The translations under genes were made by a program, and so were the position numbers. From a phage, in the sequence record OZ470806.1: a stretch of 49,949 nucleotides of DNA. One strand, written 5' to 3'. Below, piece after piece: positions 6,409-46,495 of this stretch (within the stretch, counting starts at the first letter, position 1; each line of letters opens with the position of its first letter). The notes beneath the pieces are model-generated. The model saw only the letters and a list, made by a program, of their open reading frames with translations, had not been told where the DNA came from and did no database searches.

Positions 6409-7383
6409 ATGGAAAAAGAAAAATTTGATCAGCTAGATGCGGATATTGTTTCTAGCTATCTGGCTACTCGCGGCGTTAAGGGTGATGCTTCTGATATGGG
6501 TATCTGGACGGCGCAAGAGCTTCACAAGATCCGCTCAACTGCCTACGAGAAAGAATATCCGGCAGGTTCAGCGCTTCGTGTATTCCCTGTAACTAATGAG
6601 CTTTCTGATACTGATAAGACTTTTGAATATCAGATGTTTGACAAGGTTGGTTACGCAAAAATTATCGCTGATTACACCGACGATCTGCCGACCGTTGACG
6701 CGCTGATGTCCAGCGAATTTGGTAAAGTGTTCCGCTTGGGTAACGCGTTCTTGATCTCCATTGACGAAATCAAGGCTGGTCAGCGCACTGGTAAGAGCCT
6801 TTCCACTCGCAAGGCAAACGCAGCGCAAAACGCTCATGATCAGGAAGTTAACCGCCTGGTGTTTAAGGGTTCAAAGCCGCATAAGATTCTTTCGGTGTTT
6901 GAGCACCCTAACCTGACAAAGATCGTGTCAACTGGCTGGTTAAGTGCTGATGAAAACACTAAGTTCCCGCAGGCGGCATCTGATGAACTGGAAAAGGCTA
7001 TTGAAACAATTCAGACCATCACCAATGGTCAGCACCGAGCAACCAACATCCTGATTCCGCCGTCTATGCGCAAGGTTCTTTCCGTTCGAATGGAAAACAC
7101 CACTGAAAGTTATCTGGAATACTTCCAGAAACAAAACAGCGGAATCACCATTGACTCAATCGCAGAGCTTGAGGATATTGATGGCACAGGAACGAAAGGT
7201 TGCCTGGTATATGAGAAAGACCCGATGAACATGTCGATCGAAATTCCAGAAGCATTTAACATGCTTCCTGCGCAACCAAAAGATCTGCATTTCAAAGTTC
7301 CGTGTACTTCAAAATGTACTGGCCTGACGATTTACCGTCCGTTTACGCTAGTGCTTATTACTGGCTTGAAAAAATCAGGTTAA
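6409..7383 (+). CDS. major capsid protein (putative)
   Basis: 324 aa from ATG 6409 with RBS GGAGGAAGAAA (ORF track begins at upstream GTG 6367); flanked by terminators; position in head module. Confidence 0.65.
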   Translation: MEKEKFDQLDADIVSSYLATRGVKGDASDMGIWTAQELHKIRSTAYEKEYPAGSALRVFPVTNELSDTDKTFEYQMFDKVGYAKIIADYTDDLPTVDALMSSEFGKVFRLGNAFLISIDEIKAGQRTGKSLSTRKANAAQNAHDQEVNRLVFKGSKPHKILSVFEHPNLTKIVSTGWLSADENTKFPQAASDELEKAIETIQTITNGQHRATNILIPPSMRKVLSVRMENTTESYLEYFQKQNSGITIDSIAELEDIDGTGTKGCLVYEKDPMNMSIEIPEAFNMLPAQPKDLHFKVPCTSKCTGLTIYRPFTLVLITGLKKSG

Positions 7384-7395
7384 TCGTATAACATT

Positions 7396-7425
7396 GGGGA
7401 ATCCTTAACTGGATTCCCTTTTTTA
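7396..7425 (+). terminator. rho-independent terminator after capsid gene
   Basis: hairpin GGGAATCC-ttaact-GGATTCCC followed by T6. Confidence 0.65.
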
Positions 7426-7439
7426 TTGGAGGTTATGAA

Positions 7440-7712
7440 ATGGCTAAAGAAAAAACTGTAACGCTAAAGGTTTCAGGCGTGTGCCTTATCATTGTTGATG
7501 GTGAGCATTATCATCCAGGCAAAGAGTTTGACGTAGAAGAATCAAAATTGAAAACAAGCGCGTTTGAATATCTAATTGCAAAAGGCGATCTGGAGGTTAA
7601 AGACAACTCCGCATTGAATGAAGAAATCAAACAGAGCGCAGCAAGCAAACGTAAAAAAGACCCGCGAGAGGGCAAGAGCAAAGCCGAACTTGAAGACGGC
7701 GGCATCTATTAA
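7440..7712 (+). CDS. hypothetical head-associated protein
   Basis: 90 aa, RBS GGAGGTTATGAAATG, Lys/Glu-rich C-terminus. Confidence 0.4.
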   Translation: MAKEKTVTLKVSGVCLIIVDGEHYHPGKEFDVEESKLKTSAFEYLIAKGDLEVKDNSALNEEIKQSAASKRKKDPREGKSKAELEDGGIY

Positions 7713-10091: not shown

Positions 10092-10122
10092 CATAATCAA
10101 TTCTTTTAACAAAAAGTGCTAT
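10092..10122 (+). promoter_or_regulatory. -10-like CATAAT followed by reverse-oriented copy of the 20-bp conserved element
   Basis: CATAAT 10092-10097; TTTTAACAAAAAGTGCTAT 10104-10122 ends 13 nt before ATG 10136. Confidence 0.35.
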
Positions 10123-29370: not shown

Positions 29371-29414
29371 ATAGCATTTTTTGTTAAACGATGATTTAAT
29401 GATTGTGTATTATA
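29371..29414 (+). promoter_or_regulatory. promoter with conserved 20-bp element (helicase)
   Basis: ATAGCATTTTTTGTTAAAC + 19-nt spacer + ATTATA. Confidence 0.45.
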
Positions 29415-29446
29415 CACGCCAAATGGCATTACTCAAAGGTTTTAGA

Positions 29447-31486
29447 ATGATTCCAAACATTGAAAAGCAAATATCAGCACTTGGTGAAGCGGTAATTAAA
29501 TCTATTCAGGAGCGATTCACTGTTGGCGATATTGTACCTTACCCTTACCAGTGCGTTGCATACGCTGAGATCGCAAAGCGTATGAAAAATTATGAGCATC
29601 CATTCTTTGTTAAAGCGTCCGTATCGGCTGGCAAAACATTGATGTTTGCAATGGTTGCTCACCAGTGCCGGAAAATGGGCTTGAAAATGATGGTCCTTGC
29701 TCGCCAGGCTGAGATTGTGGATCAGGATTCCGAAGAGATAACAAATCTTGGCGTGCCGAACTCCATCTATTGTGCAGGACTGAAAACAAAAAGCGCATAC
29801 TTTCCGATCGTTGTTGGTTCTGAGGGCACTGTAGTTAATGGACTGTTTAAAGCGCTTGGCGACTATGTTCCGCACGTTATCGGGATTGATGAATGTCACC
29901 AGGTGGATTGGGAAGACCTTGCAGACGCAATAGAGAAAGATGAATCTTTTTTACAAATGACGACGAAGAAAGGAGAAAAAGTACCAAATCCAGATTATGA
30001 CGTAGCGAGCGATAACGAATGCGAAGAGTTCCTGATTGGTGATGATGGCTTGCCAATGGAGGGAACAGGCCGCACACAATACACTGTCATTATTATGGAA
30101 ATGATGCGCCGTTGCCGAAAAGCATATGGCCATGAACTGCGCATATTTGGTATGACTGGATCTGAGTTTCGCGGTGTAGTCCCAATACTGGTAGAAGATA
30201 AAAAGCAGAAAGGATTCTGGCGCGAACAGGTTACTAATATTGACACCAACTACCTTATCAAGTTTGGATCTGTTGTTCCGACTAATTTTGGCGACGTTGG
30301 CGATCTCGGGTATGACCTTTCAGAGTTTGAGGCATCAAGTGAGGATGGCGTTGCAGACTTTGACGCTAAAACGCTTCGCAGGATGGAACAAAAAATTCAT
30401 GAAGAAGCGACCATGACAAAGCGCATCATGGCGAAAGTTCACGAGATCTGTAAAAACCGTAACGGCGTACTTGTGACATGTGCAGGAGAAAGGCATTGCA
30501 AAGAGGCCGCGGCAGCATTGCCACCTGGAACTACTTACAGGATCATTACTGGCAAGACTGGCGACAACCAGCGCAAGGAGTGGTTGAAAGAAGCATACGA
30601 GGGGAAGGTTAAATACATCTTCCAGGTGCAGGCGCTAACTACTGGCGTTAACGTGCCGTTTTGGGATACGTCTGTTATTCTGCGTAAGATTGGATCTCTT
30701 ACGTTGCTGATTCAGCTTTTAGGGCGCGGAATGCGACTTCTTAAGAAATGGCACAAGGAACAAGGCTTCAAGAAAGATGATCACCTGGTTATGGATTTTT
30801 CAGGAACGATGGACGAGTTAGGTGAGCTTTATTTTGATCCGATACTGGAACAGGCGCAACATCAGAAGCGATTCAGGAACGGTAAAGATCCGAAGCCTTG
30901 TCCTGTTTGCGGAACTCTTAACAGCTATTATGCTCGTCGTTGTATGCACGTAGACGAAAACGGCAACAGATGCGAGTGGTTCTTTAAATTCAGGACATGT
31001 GATGATCAGATTGACCCGCGCACTAAAAAGATTATTCAGCGCGGCTGTGGAACTAAAAATGATATTGCGGCCAGGGTATGCAGACATTGCGACATGTCAT
31101 TGATTGACCCTAACGAGAAGTTAAGCGGAAAGCACTACACAAAAAACGACTGGTTCCAGGTGCAATCTTTCTCGGTTGACATGACGAAAAACCAGAAAGG
31201 GATAATATTTAATTATGAGCTTTCCGATGGCATAGACACTTTCAGGGCGAGAGAGATATTTTTCCCTGAATCTGATAGCCAAATTTGCCGCGCAAAATGG
31301 CGAAGCGTTGCTCTTAAGCACATACCGGATCGCCGTGTTGCTGGCATGGTGGCGAGCTATCGTAATGCACGAAAAATAATGCAATATGTGAATCACATCA
31401 TGCCACCATCGCGTGTGACTCACCGCAAGACTAGCAAGGGAGAAGATAATTTGTACAAGAAGGAATTTAATTATGGCAATGACTGA
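29447..31486 (+). CDS. SF2 DNA helicase
   Basis: Walker A SVSAGKT, DECH box; C-terminal Cys4 zinc-ribbon motifs; start taken at ATG 29447 downstream of predicted promoter (ORF track opens at 29381). Confidence 0.8.
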   Translation: MIPNIEKQISALGEAVIKSIQERFTVGDIVPYPYQCVAYAEIAKRMKNYEHPFFVKASVSAGKTLMFAMVAHQCRKMGLKMMVLARQAEIVDQDSEEITNLGVPNSIYCAGLKTKSAYFPIVVGSEGTVVNGLFKALGDYVPHVIGIDECHQVDWEDLADAIEKDESFLQMTTKKGEKVPNPDYDVASDNECEEFLIGDDGLPMEGTGRTQYTVIIMEMMRRCRKAYGHELRIFGMTGSEFRGVVPILVEDKKQKGFWREQVTNIDTNYLIKFGSVVPTNFGDVGDLGYDLSEFEASSEDGVADFDAKTLRRMEQKIHEEATMTKRIMAKVHEICKNRNGVLVTCAGERHCKEAAAALPPGTTYRIITGKTGDNQRKEWLKEAYEGKVKYIFQVQALTTGVNVPFWDTSVILRKIGSLTLLIQLLGRGMRLLKKWHKEQGFKKDDHLVMDFSGTMDELGELYFDPILEQAQHQKRFRNGKDPKPCPVCGTLNSYYARRCMHVDENGNRCEWFFKFRTCDDQIDPRTKKIIQRGCGTKNDIAARVCRHCDMSLIDPNEKLSGKHYTKNDWFQVQSFSVDMTKNQKGIIFNYELSDGIDTFRAREIFFPESDSQICRAKWRSVALKHIPDRRVAGMVASYRNARKIMQYVNHIMPPSRVTHRKTSKGEDNLYKKEFNYGND

Positions 31487-31892
31487 TAAAGGCGATTATC
31501 TGGAGTTTTACGAAAGAGATCCGACGGATACGCTAAAGGAGGAATCACACCAGATCGGGGCGTTTCAATGGTTAACTTATGCTCATCCTGAATTTCTTGC
31601 CTGGCATACTAAAAATGAGGGCGACAAGGGGATCGCCACTGCAATGATGGATCAGCAAGCCGGACTAGTTAAGGGCGTAAGTGATTTCATCATCCTGATT
31701 GGATTAAAAGGCCGCTATCCGTTTGCAGCAATTGAGATGAAGCGCGTCAATAAGTCAGGCAAGGGTAAGGCTTCACCAGTCAGCAAGGAGCAAAAAGCCT
31801 TCTTGCGCCGTGTGCGTGAGCTTGGCGGATTCGCTGCCGTAACATACGGATATAAGCAATTCATGATCGCGGTAGAATACATGATGAAATAG
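31473..31892 (+). CDS. VRR-NUC-type PD-(D/E)xK nuclease
   Basis: 139 aa; GVSDFIILI...AIEMKR motif. Confidence 0.6.
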   Translation: MAMTDKGDYLEFYERDPTDTLKEESHQIGAFQWLTYAHPEFLAWHTKNEGDKGIATAMMDQQAGLVKGVSDFIILIGLKGRYPFAAIEMKRVNKSGKGKASPVSKEQKAFLRRVRELGGFAAVTYGYKQFMIAVEYMMK

Positions 31893-32080: not shown

Positions 32081-32668
32081 GTGACTGGCAACCGCTATAA
32101 CGGAAGCAATACGCCGGACGTTGTGCGCGATTTGTGGTCTACGCCGTCTGAGCTTGTAGAATGGATGGAAAGCGAATACGGTGATTATGACATTGACGCG
32201 GCGGCAAGCAAAGAAAATGCTGTATGTGAAAAATTCTACAGCAAGGAAACAAATTGTTTAAAGCGTTGGTGGGGTAGTAATAAGCATATATGGCTGAATC
32301 CACCGTATAGCAATATTACGCCATTTGTTAAGAAGGCGATTGAGCAAATGGAGCACAACAACCAGATCGACATTCTGTTACCTTGCGACACATCAACAGG
32401 ATGGTTTTATGAAGCGCAGCAGCGCGCAGCGGAAATAATCTGGATCACTGGCGAAGTTTACCAGGAGGATGGAACAGAATATTCCCGCACCGGACGCCTT
32501 GCGTTTACTTCCGCGCTAACAGGTAAACCAGTGCAGGGAAACAACAAAGGCAGCGTTATTTTCATCATGCGCGAACTGAAAGAAGGTGAGCAGCAGAAAA
32601 CGCGATACGTTAAAATCAGCGACATTTGCCCTTCGGTGGCAGACCGTCGCGCACGGAAACGGAGCTAA
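32081..32668 (+). CDS. dam: DNA N6-adenine methyltransferase (Dam-like)
   Basis: DLWSTP and NPPY motifs; GTG start. Confidence 0.75.
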   Translation: MTGNRYNGSNTPDVVRDLWSTPSELVEWMESEYGDYDIDAAASKENAVCEKFYSKETNCLKRWWGSNKHIWLNPPYSNITPFVKKAIEQMEHNNQIDILLPCDTSTGWFYEAQQRAAEIIWITGEVYQEDGTEYSRTGRLAFTSALTGKPVQGNNKGSVIFIMRELKEGEQQKTRYVKISDICPSVADRRARKRS

Positions 32669-32672
32669 AACC

Positions 32673-32930
32673 ATGCAAAAAGAAAGAAGCGTTTATTTAA
32701 ATGAAACTGGAGAATGGTTGTTATTTCGCGCTATGGTATGCGATGCACTTGATAAAAACCCTAACGTGAAAAAGATGATTGATTGCGATCCGTGGGAATT
32801 TTCAAGCGCATTAGATATGAGCTTTGAGGAGACAAAAAAACTCCCGCTTGAAAAATGGAACGAGCAAATCAGAAATGACATGCAAGAATTTGTCGATTCG
32901 TGGAATTTTCAGCACGGAATGATCCACTAA
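32673..32930 (+). CDS. hypothetical protein
   Basis: ATG 32673 after RBS GGAG, coupled to dam stop. Confidence 0.45.
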   Translation: MQKERSVYLNETGEWLLFRAMVCDALDKNPNVKKMIDCDPWEFSSALDMSFEETKKLPLEKWNEQIRNDMQEFVDSWNFQHGMIH

Positions 32931-32973
32931 CAGCACTTTTTGTTAAAACGCCCGGCCTTGTGTCGGGCATAAT
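32930..32973 (+). promoter_or_regulatory. promoter with conserved 20-bp element
   Basis: ACAGCACTTTTTGTTAAAAC + dyad GCCCGG/CGGGC spacer + CATAAT. Confidence 0.45.
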
Positions 32974-33005
32974 TATTTCATCAAAACGAACAAGAGGAAA
33001 ACAAA

Positions 33006-33417: not shown

Positions 33418-33512
33418 GGATTATTATCATGTGGCGTTTGTTACTTTTGCCCTTACCTGTTATGATGGCGATCTCTATTGTATACGTTGTCATAATGAGA
33501 TAAGGAGAATTT

Positions 33513-34631
33513 TTGATGAAGCAAATCAAAATCACAGATGAACAATTTATCAATGAGCGCAAGCAGGGAAAGACATATAAGCAGATCGCTAATGAGTATG
33601 GCATGAACGTTCGCAGCATTGAGCGCCGCGCGGCACGATTAGCAAAGCAAGGTAAAGTTACAACCATCGGATCACCTGGTTTTGGTGTTACTGGAGAATC
33701 AAAGCTAATTGATAAAGATGGCAATGTGGTTATGACATGGATTAAGACAAGTAAGGACCGCGAACAGTTAGAAGCATTAATGCAGGCCGCTATGGATGCA
33801 TTTAGCGAAGAAGTTCCTCGACTTGATCCACAGCCAGAATCACAAAAGGATTATAGCGAGACGCTATCACTGTATCCGATCTTTGACATGCACTTGGGCG
33901 CAATGGCGCATAAGCATGAATGCGGCGAGAACTGGGATACAGCAACAGCAGAGCGCGTAATGAATAATTTCATTGATTATTCCATCCAGTGCGCGCCGGA
34001 TAGCGAAAAGGCTGTTTTGCTGATTGGTGGTGACATGCTGCATAGTGACGGCCTGGAAGCGGTGACACCTGCAAGCGGTCACGTATTGGATCAAGATAGT
34101 CGATACGCAAAACTTGTTTATGTTGCCATCCGGTCAGTGCGTAGAGCAATTACAAAGCTGTTATCAAAACACAAAAACGTCGAGATTCAGATCATTGAAG
34201 GCAACCACGACCAAAGCGGTATGATCTGGTTGCGCGCAGCAATGGCGGCAGCATATGAGAATGAGCCACGAGTGCATGTTGATGTATCTCCGCGAGTAGT
34301 TCATCACACACAATATGGCAAAACATTCCTGGCATACCATCACGGGCATACTATCCGCAAACCTGAAACATTGCTCATGATGTGCGCGGCAGACTGGCGC
34401 GAAGACTTCGGCAATTCAAAAATGATGTATGCTCACGTAGGGCATTGGCATCATCAAACAGTAACCGAAACAAGCCTGGGAATTGTTGAAGTGCATAGCA
34501 CTATGGCGGCAAAAGATGCATATGCGGCGCGCGGTGGATGGCGATCTCGTCGCCGTGCGGCTGTTATTGTTTATGATAAAGAATACGGAGAAGTAGGGCG
34601 ATTTATGCATTATCCAGAAATGGCTGGTTGA
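33513..34631 (+). CDS. HTH-domain / metallophosphoesterase fusion protein
   Basis: N-terminal HTH-like YKQIANEYGMNVRSIERRAARL; GDMLH, GNHD, GHWHH calcineurin-like phosphoesterase motifs. Confidence 0.6.
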   Translation: MMKQIKITDEQFINERKQGKTYKQIANEYGMNVRSIERRAARLAKQGKVTTIGSPGFGVTGESKLIDKDGNVVMTWIKTSKDREQLEALMQAAMDAFSEEVPRLDPQPESQKDYSETLSLYPIFDMHLGAMAHKHECGENWDTATAERVMNNFIDYSIQCAPDSEKAVLLIGGDMLHSDGLEAVTPASGHVLDQDSRYAKLVYVAIRSVRRAITKLLSKHKNVEIQIIEGNHDQSGMIWLRAAMAAAYENEPRVHVDVSPRVVHHTQYGKTFLAYHHGHTIRKPETLLMMCAADWREDFGNSKMMYAHVGHWHHQTVTETSLGIVEVHSTMAAKDAYAARGGWRSRRRAAVIVYDKEYGEVGRFMHYPEMAG

Positions 34632-36114: not shown

Positions 36115-36150
36115 GGTAACTTCCTTTTGTTGTTTCGTTTCGATGAAACA

Positions 36151-36194
36151 AATATACCCGATACGAGATCGGGAGTTTTAACAAAAAGTGCTAT
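36151..36194 (-). promoter_or_regulatory. promoter with conserved 20-bp element (minus strand)
   Basis: minus-strand ATAGCACTTTTTGTTAAAAC + dyad CCCGAT/ATCGGG spacer + TATATT. Confidence 0.45.
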
Positions 36195-36385
36195 TCAATA
36201 CGCTTTACAGTAACCAACAAAACGCCGTCCTCATCACACAAATTATGCTCTGATATATCAAACGCTCGCATGTCAGAATGAATGAGCGTTAACATTGCGT
36301 GCATGAAGTCGTCATGTGAGATTGAACTTACGGCGCAGAACTTCAATATTTTGTCTATTAGCATTTGACGTAAACAATTCTTCAT
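36191..36385 (-). CDS. hypothetical protein
   Basis: 64 aa; RBS GGAGAAA before ATG 36385; stop embedded in conserved element; overlaps 3' end of upstream gene. Confidence 0.3.
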   Translation of the reverse strand: MKNCLRQMLIDKILKFCAVSSISHDDFMHAMLTLIHSDMRAFDISEHNLCDEDGVLLVTVKRIE

Positions 36386-36704
36386 CGCTCATTTCTCCGA
36401 TCCTTAAAACATCCCTTACCCATTCGTTTTGCATACCTTCAAGGCTGTAAAGTTCAAACGAGAAAGGGCGATTTGCTGATCCTTTCTTACACCAGAACTT
36501 TCCACCAACTCCATCAAGATAACCAGCGGTCATCATTCTTGCGCAAAACTCTTTTGAAACGGCGGTTGCAAACATTCTCGGCGTAAATCCTGCGGCCCTT
36601 GCGAGCCGCTCACATTCTCTATGCTGAAATATAAATTTCGCTATATGTTGACGTGTAAACCATTCGAATGACTCACACCAGCGATACAGATCCAGAAGAA
36701 ACAT
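36312..36704 (-). CDS. hypothetical protein
   Basis: 130 aa, coupled to upstream P-loop gene. Confidence 0.45.
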   Translation of the reverse strand: MFLLDLYRWCESFEWFTRQHIAKFIFQHRECERLARAAGFTPRMFATAVSKEFCARMMTAGYLDGVGGKFWCKKGSANRPFSFELYSLEGMQNEWVRDVLRIGEMSDEELFTSNANRQNIEVLRRKFNLT

Positions 36705-36706
36705 AA

Positions 36707-38290
36707 TTACCCCAGCAATGTTGGATTTACGAAAACAACGCCATTAATCACACAAATATAATTTCTTTCTTCAAGCATCGGCAGCAGTTGCGTTTCCATA
36801 CGCTTCATTACGCCAGCCTGGCCAACAAAAGGCTTAACTTTTCGTGCAGCCTCATATATGGCGCGCACATTCAAGATTCCCTTATTAGCCTTGCCGTGTC
36901 GAGTGATGATCTCGATTAGTTTACCCATTTCAGCATCATCACCAGCATAGCCAGAGGCGTTGGCGGCGCTAATGTATGTTTTGCTCAACTCGCTAAACAT
37001 CAGCAGTGCTTCCTGAACGGTTTCAACTTCAATCTCTTTCGACTTCTGAGGGTATCCACCAGGATTAAACCAGTTGCGGATAGTGTGCAAAACTGAAGCA
37101 ATCCTGATCACCTGCTTATCCATTTTGCCAAGCGCGCCGCGCAGCATTGTATGCGAATACTTTCCTCCATCGGCAAGGTGCGGTTCCATCTCCTGACGAG
37201 CCATGTTAAGCACTCGCATTGCTGATTTGCTGATCTTAAGCTGGATGTTTGATTCACTCATGATGTTATGGATCAGCTTAAAATATTGGCTTTTCAGTTC
37301 TCCATCAACAGGTTCATAAGTAGAATCACCGTTATCATCAACAAACTTTCTACGGCCTAAAAATGATTCCTCACGCACAAGCAAATAACGCTCACTTACA
37401 CCGATACCGCGCGATCCTGCATCCATGATGGCATTGATTGTTTCATCCTGGGCAATTACCGCCATACAGCCAAGAGCTTTAAAACTCATATTGTTGTCAG
37501 CGTTTGCACGAGCTATAGAAACATGACCATGATCCCATGCTTTCAGCACAAGTTCGCTGTTGGTTTTACGTTCGCTATTGGCATATGTCAGACCTAAAAG
37601 GCTGTTAATACTAGTTGCCTCGTCTGAAATCACAGCAAAGTTACCCTGGCGATTGTTGATTCTTGCAAGTCCTTCCGGCGTGGTGTCGGACACAGGGAAA
37701 ACGATGTCACACATCTTTTCCAGTTTTTCTTCCAGATCTTCTTTCTCCTGGTACAGAGATTCCATATCAGCGCCGGAGCGCTCGCTTTTCATCTCTTTTG
37801 CAAGACCTGCCAACTTTGCCTGAATCTTTTTTCTTTCCTTCTTTCGCTGATCGTTAATTCTTTCCACTTCTGCAACCATTGGAGCAAGTGCCAGGCTGTT
37901 AACGGCAGATTTACCAGTTGAAGGAGGCTGGCTTGTGACAACATAAAGAGCTGTCGGCTGATCCGTTCCGTGATACTCAACCGTGAAGCGTCCAAGCATT
38001 GCAGCAGACACGCAGCCTATAAAATGCATATAGGCCGATGATTCAGGGAATTGAACAGAGCGAGCAATGTTGCGCGCCAACTTGCCAACAACATCAACAT
38101 CATTGCCAAGAGAAATTACAGGGTAGCGATCGTTTCCGTTATTAACATCATTAACCTCACCCCAAAAGCTAGACGATTGACGGTATCCGTTTGCCTGAAT
38201 GGACACGCGCACAGGAGACAATCCTTGTGCATCAGCTAATTCGATAATTTGTTTTGGTGTTAGTTTATTGGTTTCAAACGAAAAATTCAT
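36707..38290 (-). CDS. large P-loop protein of unknown function
   Basis: ATG 38290 (MNFSFET) after RBS AAAGGAG; Walker A-like PPSTGKS; charged coiled-coil segment. Confidence 0.5.
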   Translation of the reverse strand: MNFSFETNKLTPKQIIELADAQGLSPVRVSIQANGYRQSSSFWGEVNDVNNGNDRYPVISLGNDVDVVGKLARNIARSVQFPESSAYMHFIGCVSAAMLGRFTVEYHGTDQPTALYVVTSQPPSTGKSAVNSLALAPMVAEVERINDQRKKERKKIQAKLAGLAKEMKSERSGADMESLYQEKEDLEEKLEKMCDIVFPVSDTTPEGLARINNRQGNFAVISDEATSINSLLGLTYANSERKTNSELVLKAWDHGHVSIARANADNNMSFKALGCMAVIAQDETINAIMDAGSRGIGVSERYLLVREESFLGRRKFVDDNGDSTYEPVDGELKSQYFKLIHNIMSESNIQLKISKSAMRVLNMARQEMEPHLADGGKYSHTMLRGALGKMDKQVIRIASVLHTIRNWFNPGGYPQKSKEIEVETVQEALLMFSELSKTYISAANASGYAGDDAEMGKLIEIITRHGKANKGILNVRAIYEAARKVKPFVGQAGVMKRMETQLLPMLEERNYICVINGVVFVNPTLLG

Positions 38291-38317
38291 TGGTGATAAC
38301 TCCTTTTTGATGCGGCA

Positions 38318-38361
38318 ATAATACCGCACCAATGCTACCCGCATTTAACAAAAAATGCTAT
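38318..38361 (-). promoter_or_regulatory. promoter with conserved element variant (minus strand)
   Basis: minus-strand ATAGCATTTTTTGTTAAAT + spacer + TATTAT inside dyad GCGG/CCGC. Confidence 0.4.
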
Positions 38362-41550: not shown

Positions 41551-41743
41551 GGAGCAATCCTCCGTCAACCAAGTCAACAAGGTCATTTTTAACATAAAAA
41601 CCAATGACTTAACTGAGGCATTTTGTTATCTTTAAACGCGCCACATGCCAAAAATTGTTATTAAAACACAAAAATACATTGACACGTATGAAAGGCAAGG
41701 CAATAATGCATCCAGTTTAAACGCAACAAAAGGAGTAGACGCC

Positions 41744-42214
41744 ATGAGCGAAGAAAATATTAGCGCCATGTCGCGTAGTGAGTTCTGCGATATGCTTCGC
41801 AGCCTGGGCGCGGCAATTGGTAGCGGCGAGCGTAACAATGTATTCATGCCAGCACTTTTCTTGTGCGCTAACGTGGAGAACGGCGACGCAATTACAGCAT
41901 CGTACATGCGCCAGGTTGTCAACCGTGTGCCAGAAGTAAAGCAAAAAGGCGTGATCAGCATTAAGCGAAAGGTGACTGATGAGGGTGATGGCTTTGTGTT
42001 TGCGCTCACTGAAGCCAAAAGCAAGCCTCGCGTGCTGACTGGAGACGATATAGCGAAACTTGAAATCAAGTGGCGAGCAAAGTTTATTGCTCAACTTCTG
42101 AAAACTCAGCCGAGAATAAGCGATCTGGAAGGCGAGCGCCTGGAGGGTGCAGCAATCGCACTTGAGCGAATGAATGAAATGCTTAACGAGATGATAAAGA
42201 TGGGGGATGAATAA
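41744..42214 (+). CDS. hypothetical early protein
   Basis: ATG 41744 (MSEEN) after RBS AAGGAG; first gene after divergent AT-rich region. Confidence 0.45.
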   Translation: MSEENISAMSRSEFCDMLRSLGAAIGSGERNNVFMPALFLCANVENGDAITASYMRQVVNRVPEVKQKGVISIKRKVTDEGDGFVFALTEAKSKPRVLTGDDIAKLEIKWRAKFIAQLLKTQPRISDLEGERLEGAAIALERMNEMLNEMIKMGDE

Positions 42215-43031: not shown

Positions 43032-43937
43032 ATGTTAAAATTAGCTGACATCAAATTCCCGATCACCTTCCAATCTCGCGGCGTTGGTCACTTCATGTTT
43101 TCCGACAAAAATACATGCACTAAGTTTAACGAATACGGAAAGCCTGATGTTTCAACAATGGAGATTGAGCACTTCATTGATGCGCATAACAAGTACTACA
43201 ACTCGCTTAAAGACTATGGATACGCAATGCCAGGCTACACTTGCTTGCACTATAAGCCATACAGGGGCCAGGTGTTACCAGTGCGCTCAACTGAGCGATC
43301 AGAGATTCATACGGTCGAGATGAAAACCTGCGACTACAAAAAGCTGTGGTGCTTAAGTGTGGACAATATCAAGTATCCGATCACGTTCTACACGGTTGGT
43401 AATTCAACGATTCGCTTCACATCGCGCGACAATGGCGTTTATAGCGATGGTCAGAAATCGGAGTTGAAAGTTGATTTCTTTGTCAATGGTCACAACAAAT
43501 TCAATCCGCACAACGAAAAGGATAAAGTGTATTACGTGGAAGATATTACGAAACACTTGTTTGGAGATGCGCCAATTGGCGGAGGTAAATCATATTTTGC
43601 GCAGGCGATAGATAACGCCGCTCGACGTATTGGTGAGCAGATTCACAGTCAAACAATTAAGGCGTCCGGAGGATGGCGTATTGATAAGAGCGCCTTTGCC
43701 CATCAAGAAATCGTAACTCATGGCGCAATTGAAGACATGCCGCTTGCCGCCACGCTAAAAGGCGTCCAAATTGCGGATGGCACATGGTTTGAATTAACGG
43801 CAAAGCCAAAGACGATCGAGATTCATGATGACGTTGTTATTCTTCTGCTTCATTATGGCAGTGCGAAAAACCGGACTGTTGCAGGAGAGATCAGCATCAA
43901 GCGCGGAACGATGGTTAAGTGGAAGGTTAAAGTGTAA
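43032..43937 (+). CDS. hypothetical protein with internal tandem duplication
   Basis: 301 aa; DIKFPITFQSRGVGHFMFSDKN and DNIKYPITFYTVGNSTIRFTSRDNG repeat units. Confidence 0.45.
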   Translation: MLKLADIKFPITFQSRGVGHFMFSDKNTCTKFNEYGKPDVSTMEIEHFIDAHNKYYNSLKDYGYAMPGYTCLHYKPYRGQVLPVRSTERSEIHTVEMKTCDYKKLWCLSVDNIKYPITFYTVGNSTIRFTSRDNGVYSDGQKSELKVDFFVNGHNKFNPHNEKDKVYYVEDITKHLFGDAPIGGGKSYFAQAIDNAARRIGEQIHSQTIKASGGWRIDKSAFAHQEIVTHGAIEDMPLAATLKGVQIADGTWFELTAKPKTIEIHDDVVILLLHYGSAKNRTVAGEISIKRGTMVKWKVKV

Positions 43938-44241: not shown

Positions 44242-44449
44242 GCGCGTTAAACACAAGTTTATTGATAATCATGGCGATGCACTTGAGGTATACAAGTTCG
44301 GCGACCGTGTGTTTATTGATGGCACGTTTGAAGGTGGGCGCAGGCCGGATTTTAGGTCGATACTCACCATTGACCAGGTGCGCAAGCTGGCGGATAAGTT
44401 AAATGATCTGGCAGATGAAATCGAATACAAGCAAATTCATTTTAATTGA
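44228..44449 (+). CDS. hypothetical protein
   Basis: 73 aa; RBS GAGGAGGTGAAGG. Confidence 0.4.
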   Translation: METNKRVKHKFIDNHGDALEVYKFGDRVFIDGTFEGGRRPDFRSILTIDQVRKLADKLNDLADEIEYKQIHFN

Positions 44450-44460
44450 TAGGTTTGATA

Positions 44461-45000
44461 ATGAAAAAATACGAATTTGAACTTTGGGGAAGCAAATACC
44501 ATTTTTCCACGAGCAAGCCGATTGTTATCGTTGACCTGGACGGAACGTTATCAGACGGAACGCATCGCTTGCACCTGCTTCCGACAGAAGATTTGCACCT
44601 TACAGAAAGCTGGTCTGAGTTCAATAAGGCGGCTGTTGGCGATTCGCCGATTAAGAGCACGGTTTCAGTAGTTAACGGATTGTGGATGTCAGGATTTGCC
44701 ATCGTTATCCTGACCGGACGCAGCGATGAGGTGATGGCTGACACCTGCGGCTGGTTAAATTATAACGGCATCAAGTACGACGCGTTAATCATGCGCCGCA
44801 AGGAAGATAACCGAAAAGACACGATCATCAAAGAGGAAGTCTTGCGAGCTATCGGGCTGGAAAACATTGTGTGCGCTTTTGATGATTCGCCGAACGTGGT
44901 TAAGCACTTCCGCAGCCTGGGAATCACAACCTATCAGGTCACGGAATACGACAAGCCACATAATCACATCCAATCGCACGGCGTGGATGAATTAAAATAG
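44461..45000 (+). CDS. HAD-superfamily phosphatase (putative nucleotidase)
   Basis: IVIVDLDGTLSDG motif (DxDGT); ATG 44461. Confidence 0.55.
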   Translation: MKKYEFELWGSKYHFSTSKPIVIVDLDGTLSDGTHRLHLLPTEDLHLTESWSEFNKAAVGDSPIKSTVSVVNGLWMSGFAIVILTGRSDEVMADTCGWLNYNGIKYDALIMRRKEDNRKDTIIKEEVLRAIGLENIVCAFDDSPNVVKHFRSLGITTYQVTEYDKPHNHIQSHGVDELK

Positions 45001-45904: not shown

Positions 45905-46495
45905 ATGAAGCGCGACATTATCATCCTTAACGGACCGCCAGGAGTTGGCAAGGATACGCTTGCGGCATACTTAACGGGCCATCGTTACGCAGCCGTAAAG
46001 GCATTATTCAAACAGCCGATGTTCGATATTGCATTTTCCATGCTTGGCGTTTACCGATATGACGAGTTCATTGATCTGTATAACGACCGCGAGCAGAAAG
46101 AAAAGCCTCAAGCAATCTTGCAAGGCAAGTCGCCTCGCCAGTTCATGATCTGGATTAGCGAAGAAGTTATGAAGCCAGCTTTTGGCGAGCAATATTTCGG
46201 AAATCGCATGGTTGAGCAAGTACACGAAATGTACAGAGATTTGGCTGTTGTAATTAGTGATGGCGGATTCCCTGAAGAAATCAAGCCGCTAGTTAAGGCA
46301 GGCCATGAAGTTCACATTTGCCGACTGCATCGCGAAGGCTTCACGTTTGATGGCGATTCACGAAACTATATTGACCTGAGCGGATACCATCACCGCGTAA
46401 AACATTACGACTTCACAATGATTGATGGCGACCCAGAAAAGACTGTTGACGAGATCATCAAAACGGTCCAGTGGAAACACATTAAGATCAAATAG
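45905..46495 (+). CDS. deoxynucleoside monophosphate kinase-like P-loop kinase
   Basis: N-terminal IIILNGPPGVGKDT P-loop, resembling T4 gp1-type dNMP kinase N-terminus. Confidence 0.6.
   Translation: MKRDIIILNGPPGVGKDTLAAYLTGHRYAAVKALFKQPMFDIAFSMLGVYRYDEFIDLYNDREQKEKPQAILQGKSPRQFMIWISEEVMKPAFGEQYFGNRMVEQVHEMYRDLAVVISDGGFPEEIKPLVKAGHEVHICRLHREGFTFDGDSRNYIDLSGYHHRVKHYDFTMIDGDPEKTVDEIIKTVQWKHIKIK

Follow-up and report, generated by a model that had tools for sequence, protein, structure and literature searches.

A helix-turn-helix-tethered metallophosphoesterase of T1-like coliphages is a candidate partnerless DNA nuclease of the Mre11/SbcD/DP1 class

The 49,949-nucleotide (nt) phage sequence OZ470806.1 (hereafter the window, meaning this whole stretch of DNA) belongs to a T1-like coliphage of the family Drexlerviridae, genus Hanrivervirus, and carries at positions 33516 to 34631 a gene for a protein in which an N-terminal helix-turn-helix (HTH) domain is fused to a metallophosphoesterase (MPE) core, referred to here as HTH-MPE. 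The reading that best accounts for the data, with a probability that we put at roughly 55%, is that HTH-MPE is a metal-dependent DNA nuclease (exo- and/or endonuclease) of the class of Mre11, SbcD and the DP1 subunit of DNA polymerase D (PolD), which works without a partner, is tethered by its HTH and belongs to a replication/nucleotide module. A nuclease is the best fit because the folds nearest to the modelled protein are those of DP1, Mre11 and SbcD and because the contexts of the gene all concern DNA or nucleotide metabolism. The gene and its parts are as follows.

33516 to 34631, + strand: HTH-MPE coding sequence, 371 amino acids plus stop, supported by the open reading frame (ORF), an ATG with a Shine-Dalgarno sequence, identity with vojen gp68 and membership of PHROG_704
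33502 to 33507, + strand: Shine-Dalgarno sequence AAGGAG, 8 nt 5' of the ATG at 33516, read from the sequence
33537 to 33647, + strand: N-terminal HTH domain, residues 8-44, with helices 8-16, 21-28 and 32-44, net basic (AlphaFold, Pfam)
33684 to 33803, + strand: family-specific beta-hairpin (residues 57-79, with G69 and W75) and helix (82-96) joining the HTH to the core (AlphaFold)
33855 to 34610, + strand: MPE catalytic core, residues 114-365
33885 to 33893, + strand: MPE motif I, D124-M-H126; D124 and H126 invariant in the 122-sequence alignment
34029 to 34049, + strand: MPE motif II, G172-D173-M-L-H176-S-D178; D173 invariant, G172, H176 and D178 conserved in at least 90%
34200 to 34211, + strand: MPE motif III, G229-N230-H231-D232; N230 and H231 invariant; source of the weak matches to PdeM and a nuclease MPE
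34341 to 34349, + strand: MPE motif IV, H276-G277-H278; H276 invariant
34440 to 34454, + strand: MPE motif V, G309-H310-W-H312-H313; G309 and H312 invariant, H310 conserved in at least 90%

The ORF listing confirmed a reading frame at 33513-34631 (+). The TTG at 33513 is merely the earliest start usable by the ORF lister and is followed directly by the ATG at 33516, from whose equivalent the homologous ORF of the near-identical phage vojen is annotated. Because this ATG has AAGGAG 8 nt upstream and agrees with the vojen annotation, it is likely to be the start of HTH-MPE, giving a product of 371 residues rather than the 372 counted in an earlier, sequence-only reading of this DNA.

The five-motif set of the calcineurin-like MPE superfamily (DxH, GDxx(D/H), GNH(D/E), H and GHxH) was complete in HTH-MPE and included the D-x-H, GDMLH, GNHD and GHWHH motifs of the sequence-only reading. 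Residues D124, H126, D173, N230, H231, H276, G309 and H312 were invariant in 122 relatives with identities to the window protein down to about 30%, and the protein did not reach a match to Pfam PF00149 above the gathering score. Since the five motifs are invariant or nearly so across these diverse relatives, HTH-MPE is predicted from its sequence to be an active enzyme and not a scaffold. The motifs also bear on a reading as a Ser/Thr/Tyr protein phosphatase similar to lambda phosphatase, which some GenBank annotations give; the homologue in Salmonella phage Ent2, for instance, is labelled 'putative serine/threonine protein phosphatase', and the superfamily is indeed shared. The signatures of the PPP phosphatases, however, are GDxxDRG and GNHE, whereas motif II of HTH-MPE is GDxxHxD and motif III GNHD, and neither the motifs nor the fold proximity expected of a PPP-type enzyme such as lambda phosphatase were found. 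We therefore regard a protein phosphatase as highly improbable.

The N-terminal segment proposed as an HTH by the sequence-only reading corresponds to residues 20-47, and its fusion to an MPE proved to be real and to be the architecture of nearly the whole family, as judged from Pfam matches in relatives, the AlphaFold model and the five motifs. Pfam searches with the HTH-MPE protein alone gave sub-threshold matches (HTH_28, E 0.0026, 18.3 bits versus a cut-off of 25; Sigma70_r4_2, E 0.076); the N-termini of the 122 relatives, scanned singly, matched Sigma70_r4_2 (1.5e-9), GerE (2.4e-8), HTH_8 (2.6e-7) and HTH_1 (4.3e-6), and the family profile found a GerE/LuxR-type HTH in the PDB at E 0.028. 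AlphaFold placed a three-helix bundle at residues 8-44, with 10-residue blocks across 11-40 averaging a predicted local distance difference test score (pLDDT) of 92-95, and residues 1-46 contain 11 K+R versus 5 D+E, a net charge of +6. At the level of the family this is a genuine HTH resembling LuxR/GerE and sigma-70 region 4, and sequence and model together predict a DNA-binding domain. The hairpin that follows has G69 and W75 conserved in at least 90% of the 122 sequences and is kept in a few short relatives in which the HTH is absent, such as ORF172 (317 aa) of Campylobacter phage CP81.

The HTH is much less conserved than the core: median identity in the 122-sequence alignment was 19% for the former and 40% for the latter, and the entropy of the recognition helix reached 2.95 bits. 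This divergence is as compatible with loose, non-specific binding as with sites that differ between lineages. Variability of this degree is expected of sequence-specific binders that co-evolve with their sites, and the HTH is of a type (LuxR, sigma region 4, Fis, LysR) that regulators carry. Both features would suit a trigger enzyme or transcription factor whose HTH binds phage operators while the MPE senses or modulates a small molecule, for example in switching on the downstream lysis cassette. In T1-like phages the gene does stand directly before those for holin, endolysin and spanin. This pre-lysis position was nevertheless confined to the T1-like phages and was not seen in the other contexts examined, and strict conservation falls on the catalytic centre and not on the HTH. 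The only over-represented motif of the window, AATAGCACTTTTTGTTAAAAC, is specific to Drexlerviridae and was absent from the examined loci of other phages with the gene. A regulatory function is thus quite unlikely.

A first AlphaFold model built on 19 close homologues (pLDDT 75) gave unspecific Foldseek matches and was superseded by one based on the diverse 122-sequence alignment (pLDDT 93.2; predicted template modelling score, pTM, 0.75). In the latter the HTH (8-44) is followed by a linker, the hairpin (57-79), a helix (82-96), a second linker and the MPE core (about 114-365), in which the beta-sandwich MPE fold is present and 10-residue blocks across 111-370 average pLDDT 96-98. The linkers flanking the HTH have lower confidence, with the 51-60 block averaging pLDDT 63. 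Taken together with a pTM of 0.75 against a pLDDT of 93, this suggests flexibility of the kind expected of a DNA-tethering module.

The folds closest to the model were the PolD DP1 exonuclease, Mre11 and SbcD, a ranking that prefers DNA nucleases by a margin that is not wide. Profile searches of the PDB gave as best matches outside the HTH the Mre11 of T. maritima (E 0.07) and a nuclease MPE of P. putida (E 0.35). A single-sequence PDB search with HTH-MPE was uninformative, and NCBIfam returned just a marginal, sub-threshold match to the ligase-associated nuclease PdeM (TIGR04123; 19.9 bits versus a cut-off of 150), limited to residues 208-239.

Of these enzymes, Mre11 and SbcD share with HTH-MPE an MPE nuclease domain with a GDxxH-type motif II and GNHD. 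Mre11/SbcD nucleases have in addition a capping domain and a segment that binds Rad50/SbcC, and they require this ATPase. In contrast to them, and to the phage pairs T4 gp47/gp46 and T5 D13/D12, HTH-MPE lacks both the capping domain and the Rad50-binding helices: in the 122 members at most 30 residues follow G358, the last conserved residue of the core, while at least 115 residues precede motif I. Conversely, Mre11 and SbcD lack the N-terminal HTH. No Rad50/SbcC-like ORF was present in the window, where the six ORFs above 500 aa encode terminase, tape measure protein, central tail fibre J, a tail fibre, the SF2 helicase and a DUF3987 protein, and no Rad50/SbcC-like neighbour was found among 119 related loci. 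The sequence-only reading had reserved the case of an Mre11/SbcD-like repair nuclease with a partner ATPase nearby, which would make this a routine recombination gene. An Mre11/SbcD-like fold is what was predicted, but the ATPase is missing from the window and from all 119 loci; since the partner as well as the capping and Rad50-binding parts are absent, HTH-MPE is not a routine Mre11-Rad50 pair.

DP1, the small subunit of PolD, is the proofreading 3'-5' exonuclease of archaea, and like the B-subunits of eukaryotic polymerases it has an oligonucleotide/oligosaccharide-binding (OB) fold that is absent from HTH-MPE. The two proteins are 15% identical, and the N-terminal part of HTH-MPE consists of the HTH, a two-strand hairpin and a helix instead of a five-strand OB fold. 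Neither the window nor the annotated T1 and vojen regions examined yielded a DP2-like or any other DNA polymerase. The third comparison, with PdeM and the nuclease MPE of Pseudomonas putida (TIGR04123), is with a small DNA-cutting MPE that has no partner and is encoded beside a DNA ligase; a similar context was seen for the phage gene in CP81, where the ligase gene adjoins, and in Era103, where it is nearby. HTH-MPE is therefore like Mre11, SbcD and DP1 in its catalytic core yet falls outside the defining features of each. Two database labels, 'protein phosphatase' and 'DNA polymerase II small subunit', are probably wrong.

HTH-MPE matched PHROG_704 ('DNA repair exonuclease') over its full length (E 1.7e-151; residues 5-370 against profile positions 3-389 of 390). 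Protein identity was 100% to gp68 of vojen, labelled 'putative phosphoesterase' or 'DNA repair exonuclease', and 56.6% to ORF16 (p16) of T1, for which the curated record, relying on an HHpred similarity to SbcD, gives 'exonuclease'. Nucleotide identity to many T1-like coliphages was 96-99% across the 1119 bases of the gene (KarlJaspers 98.5%, vB_EcoP_06 99.3%, vojen 97.9%). By tblastn, homologues occurred in 2048 of 50,697 phage records (about 4%), among them Drexlerviridae of E. coli, Klebsiella and Shigella, Jerseyvirus, Dhillonvirus and Kagunavirus, as well as the podovirus Era103, phages of Vibrio, Rhizobium and Roseobacter and Campylobacter myoviruses. When a profile was run against 1.84 billion representative proteins, 5303 clusters (50% identity) were recovered at E <= 1e-3, and 1306 at E <= 1e-30. 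Proteins of 370-420 aa with the same N-terminal extension (HTH, hairpin and MPE) make up nearly all of these. As this extension is near-universal in the roughly 5300 clusters and in the 122 aligned members, the HTH-MPE fusion is the ancestral architecture of the family and no local accident. HTH-MPE is thus a conserved member of a catalogued, experimentally unstudied phage family whose sequence is already in public databases, and the label 'DNA repair exonuclease' for PHROG_704 is a plausible prediction.

Some records among the matches have unexpected hosts. Such matches include MG065636.1. Twenty GenBank records titled 'Campylobacter phage' were among the gene matches, and in one of them, A16a (50 kb), the protein is 95.7% identical to HTH-MPE; a record titled 'Streptococcus phage MBBL140' encodes a protein 79% identical to it. 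Either these host labels are wrong or the samples were contaminated, probably.

To place the gene in its wider context, related loci gathered with single-protein queries (119 loci in 16 clades at 60% identity) were surveyed within five genes; BLAST-level clustering of the neighbours was too insensitive and jackhmmer was added. In E. coli prophages and phage mEp515, whose homologues are 65-67% identical to HTH-MPE, the cI repressor gene is followed rightward by genes for a cro-like protein, a replication initiator (Lin1244_N or O-like), an Ant-like protein and HTH-MPE, and the gene for the DnaB helicase begins 19 nt further downstream. These prophages carry an integrase and cI, and HTH-MPE lies within their early-right replication operon. 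In a Vibrio phage the gene is directly 3' of that for single-stranded DNA-binding protein (SSB), with NDT-like and MazG-like proteins next, and in Campylobacter phage CP81 a relative comes directly after an ATP-dependent DNA ligase. The order in Era103 is 5'-3' exonuclease, endonuclease, HTH-MPE, HAD phosphatase, P-loop deoxynucleoside monophosphate (dNMP) kinase and DNA ligase. HTH-MPE, HAD phosphatase and kinase form a three-gene cassette that recurs in Klebsiella Webervirus, in the Dhillonvirus-type phage K-02 and in Era103; in several other phage lineages a dNMP kinase gene stands 2-5 genes downstream. Among the 16 clades of the census, MazG-like genes were found in four, dNMP kinase and NDT-like genes in three each, and HAD, ligase and SSB genes in two each. 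The position of HTH-MPE thus varies while its company is consistently that of DNA or nucleotide metabolism.

HNH homing endonuclease genes were near HTH-MPE in 6 of the 16 clades. One lies directly 3' of HTH-MPE in T1 (positions 7207-7689 of locus L002), in Salmonella phage Ent2 (7159-7659 of L005) and in mEp515 (8070-8624 of L003); no HNH gene is directly downstream in the window. Because such genes adjoin HTH-MPE in three unrelated lineages and occur within five genes of it in these six clades, the gene appears to be a frequent homing target or landmark.

In the window, as in vojen and T1, with which the local gene order agrees, HTH-MPE is the final gene of a rightward block:

Leftward: primase and transcriptional regulator
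29381 to 31486, rightward: SF2 helicase
31473 to 31892, rightward: VRR-NUC nuclease
32081 to 32668, rightward: adenine methyltransferase (Dam), followed by three small ORFs and then the HTH-MPE gene
Downstream of the HTH-MPE gene, rightward: holin, endolysin and spanin
44446 to 45000, + strand: HAD-type polynucleotide 3'-phosphatase-like gene (PF25109 HAD_PNKP, E 1.2e-21; in the PDB, Pnkp1 5.8e-7 and T4 Pnkp 2.3e-4)
45905 to 46495, + strand: dNMP kinase gene of the T4 gp1 type (PHROG_139, E 4.9e-49; profile against T4 dNMP kinase 1dek, E 2.8e-7)

The sequence-only reading had described the gene as lying between Dam and the lysis genes, which holds, and had considered this not to be a classical replication position. 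The latter does not stand: the gene ends a block of helicase, VRR-NUC and Dam genes, and its prophage homologue lies between the initiator and DnaB. The same phage encodes a separate RecE-like exonuclease, Erf and SSB. The HAD phosphatase and dNMP kinase genes are about 10 kb from HTH-MPE and unlinked to it in the window. The HAD protein does resemble the phosphatase domain of Pnkp; the idea that the HAD phosphatase and the kinase form a split Pnkp, with the MPE as an enzyme of RNA or DNA end healing, was considered and its kinase half dropped, as the profile of the kinase matches 1dek (E 2.8e-7) and not a Pnkp kinase.

The enzymes of nucleotide metabolism raise the possibility that HTH-MPE serves in the demolition of host DNA followed by salvage, in which its chief task would be to break the host chromosome down into 5'-dNMPs, while the HAD 3'-phosphatase would unblock ends and the dNMP kinase would recycle the products into precursors of phage DNA; the shut-off of host genes, defences included, would be a side effect. 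In agreement with this, genes for dNMP kinase, HAD phosphatase, MazG-like and NDT-like proteins recur just downstream in several clades, and no ribonucleotide reductase or DNA polymerase was found among the window ORFs identified. An MPE of a mycobacteriophage, gp48 of A10ZJ24, which has no HTH, is expressed early and acts as a phosphodiesterase and DNase; it breaks down the host chromosome, with degradation of host DNA seen both in vivo and in vitro, and the replication of phage DNA in M. tuberculosis depends on it (PMC12287305). It is reported as a close Cluster A homologue of Bxb1 gp47. The latter belongs to PHROG_221 and HTH-MPE to PHROG_704, and hhalign linked the two over motifs III-V at E 0.005 with a probability of 7%. 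Bxb1 gp47 and A10ZJ24 gp48 are about 255 aa long with motif I at residue 10, and hence lack the HTH and the hairpin; Bxb1 gp47 doubles, moreover, as a recombination directionality factor. The mycobacteriophage proteins are superfamily analogues of HTH-MPE and not members of its family. Literature searches found no papers on host-DNA degradation by T1 or on phosphoesterases of T1-like phages.

On the other side, homologues 65-67% identical to HTH-MPE sit in the replication operon of prophages with integrase and cI, where an indiscriminate nuclease would be expected to clash with lysogeny. Host-DNA destruction appears ill-suited to this operon because it would be expressed before the lysogeny decision, and the processing of replication or recombination intermediates is preferred because these homologues, about two-thirds identical, stand between initiator and DnaB. 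Jerseyviruses carry the MPE mostly without the kinase and the phosphatase: among Salmonella phages 373 have the MPE versus 43 and 49 with kinase and phosphatase, and most have neither. Nor is there any visible mechanism that would spare the phage DNA. Demolition of host DNA as the primary function is possible but doubtful. The Rad50/Mre11 proteins gp46/47 of T4 take part both in host-DNA breakdown and in recombination-dependent replication. Because T4 gp46/47 does both, this explanation overlaps with the preferred one, and host-DNA breakdown with nucleotide salvage is to be seen as its main rival or as a second role of HTH-MPE.

The setting differs in Jerseyvirus and in phage K-02, whose tail-gene cluster contains a small island, encoded on the opposite strand, that holds the gene and opens with a superinfection-immunity (imm-like) membrane protein (5747-5926 in L005; 5771-5962 in L006); for a gene of DNA metabolism such a location is unusual. 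A moron-like island with an imm gene is what might be expected if HTH-MPE were a counter-defence phosphodiesterase that hydrolyses the cyclic (oligo)nucleotide signals of CBASS, Pycsar, type III CRISPR or Thoeris immunity. In such an enzyme, however, the universally conserved DNA-binding domain would be without purpose, and the nearest folds are DNA nucleases and the neighbours genes of replication and nucleotide metabolism. A search of PADLOC-DB gave no family at E <= 1, and literature searches for a defence or anti-defence link of the family returned just unrelated systems and the papers on the mycobacteriophage MPEs. Counter-defence is accordingly very unlikely. Of the functions offered by the sequence-only reading, a targeted nuclease remains the best fit in view of the DP1, Mre11 and SbcD folds, and for a hydrolase of signalling nucleotides nothing beyond the generic fold was found.

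Under the preferred reading as a nuclease, HTH-MPE would be a Mn2+- or Mg2+-dependent enzyme acting alone. Other nucleases of the Mre11/SbcD/DP1 class grip DNA either through a capping domain and the Rad50/SbcC ATPase or through an OB fold and a polymerase. In HTH-MPE the basic, flexibly linked HTH, similar to LuxR and sigma region 4, may hold the catalytic core on duplex DNA and so replace the Rad50 clamp or capping domain. The enzyme would then trim or open DNA ends and intermediates in phage DNA replication or recombination, and the 5'-dNMPs released could be recycled by the co-occurring dNMP kinase of the T4 gp1 type. The domain architecture, intact active site, fold class, lack of a partner ATPase and gene contexts are established here; that the substrate is DNA, that the HTH acts as a tether and that the enzyme works in replication or processing is inferred.

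Several points weigh against this reading. The position of the gene is not conserved, and its place in the tail-gene island of Jerseyvirus and K-02 looks more like that of an accessory or host-takeover gene. The commonest neighbours are nucleotide-level enzymes, which are equally compatible with a smaller substrate than DNA. Conservation of the HTH is far below that of the core (19% versus 40% median identity) and gives no pointer to its target, and an HTH can serve autoregulation instead of substrate binding. At the sequence level the matches to Mre11 and PdeM are marginal (E 0.07 to 4e-4), and literature searches gave no experimental study of any member of PHROG_704.

The variable HTH also admits a more specific form of the nuclease reading, in which HTH-MPE is a site-directed enzyme that recognises a particular sequence or structure of the phage genome, for example an origin or replication-restart site, and nicks or processes it so that replication begins or resumes; in lambdoid prophages its function would then come between those of the initiator and the DnaB helicase. 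We know of no metallophosphoesterase for which a role as a replication-initiation factor has been described, and this version is unlikely. If true, HTH-MPE would be a partnerless, sequence-targeted replication-initiation factor of the Mre11 class.

Some further features of the window were recorded. The 21-nt motif AATAGCACTTTTTGTTAAAAC occurs in 14 copies when up to 3 mismatches are allowed, where shuffling predicts 0, at 10103, 20922, 29370, 31888, 32929, 36175, 38342, 39018, 41069, 42470, 42933, 43937, 44996 and 47835. Those copies that were compared with the ORF calls are intergenic or at gene ends, and most share the orientation of the flanking genes; a GC-rich hairpin follows both copies checked for one (31888 and 32929). 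Vojen and T1 have the motif as well, and it may act as a terminator, promoter or boxA/boxB-like element specific to the family. As a target of the HTH it was rejected, being absent from the examined loci of non-Drexlerviridae phages that carry the HTH-MPE gene. A 62-nt inverted repeat, 84% complementary (32929-32990 and 36134-36195), spans from upstream of HTH-MPE to beyond the lysis cassette; each arm holds the AATAGCACTTTTTGTTAAAAC motif and the left arm also a hairpin. Just past the lysis cassette are two leftward genes, one for a DUF3987 (D5-like) ATPase (36707-38344, - strand), whose vojen homologue is annotated 'DNA helicase' and which is the second putative helicase of the phage, and one for its conserved 130-aa partner of PHROG_2794 (36312-36704, - strand). 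Two further conserved proteins are a DUF7174 protein (E 3.9e-45), encoded at 41645-42214 (+), and a 301-aa member of PHROG_7116 with no Pfam domain, at 43032-43937 (+).

The architecture described here, a variant of the Mre11/DP1 class with an HTH tether and without a partner, will be no surprise to a phage specialist. The protein is nevertheless among the more widespread phage proteins of untested function, in genera often isolated on E. coli, Klebsiella and Salmonella (T1-like phages, Webervirus, Jerseyvirus and Dhillonvirus), and its adjacency to DnaB in E. coli prophages provides a direct genetic handle. Should HTH-MPE prove to be a nuclease in which an HTH tether substitutes for the Rad50 clamp, it would offer a minimal model of how Mre11-class enzymes engage DNA, and it would account for how phages without their own DNA polymerase or Rad50 process replication and recombination intermediates or harvest nucleotides.

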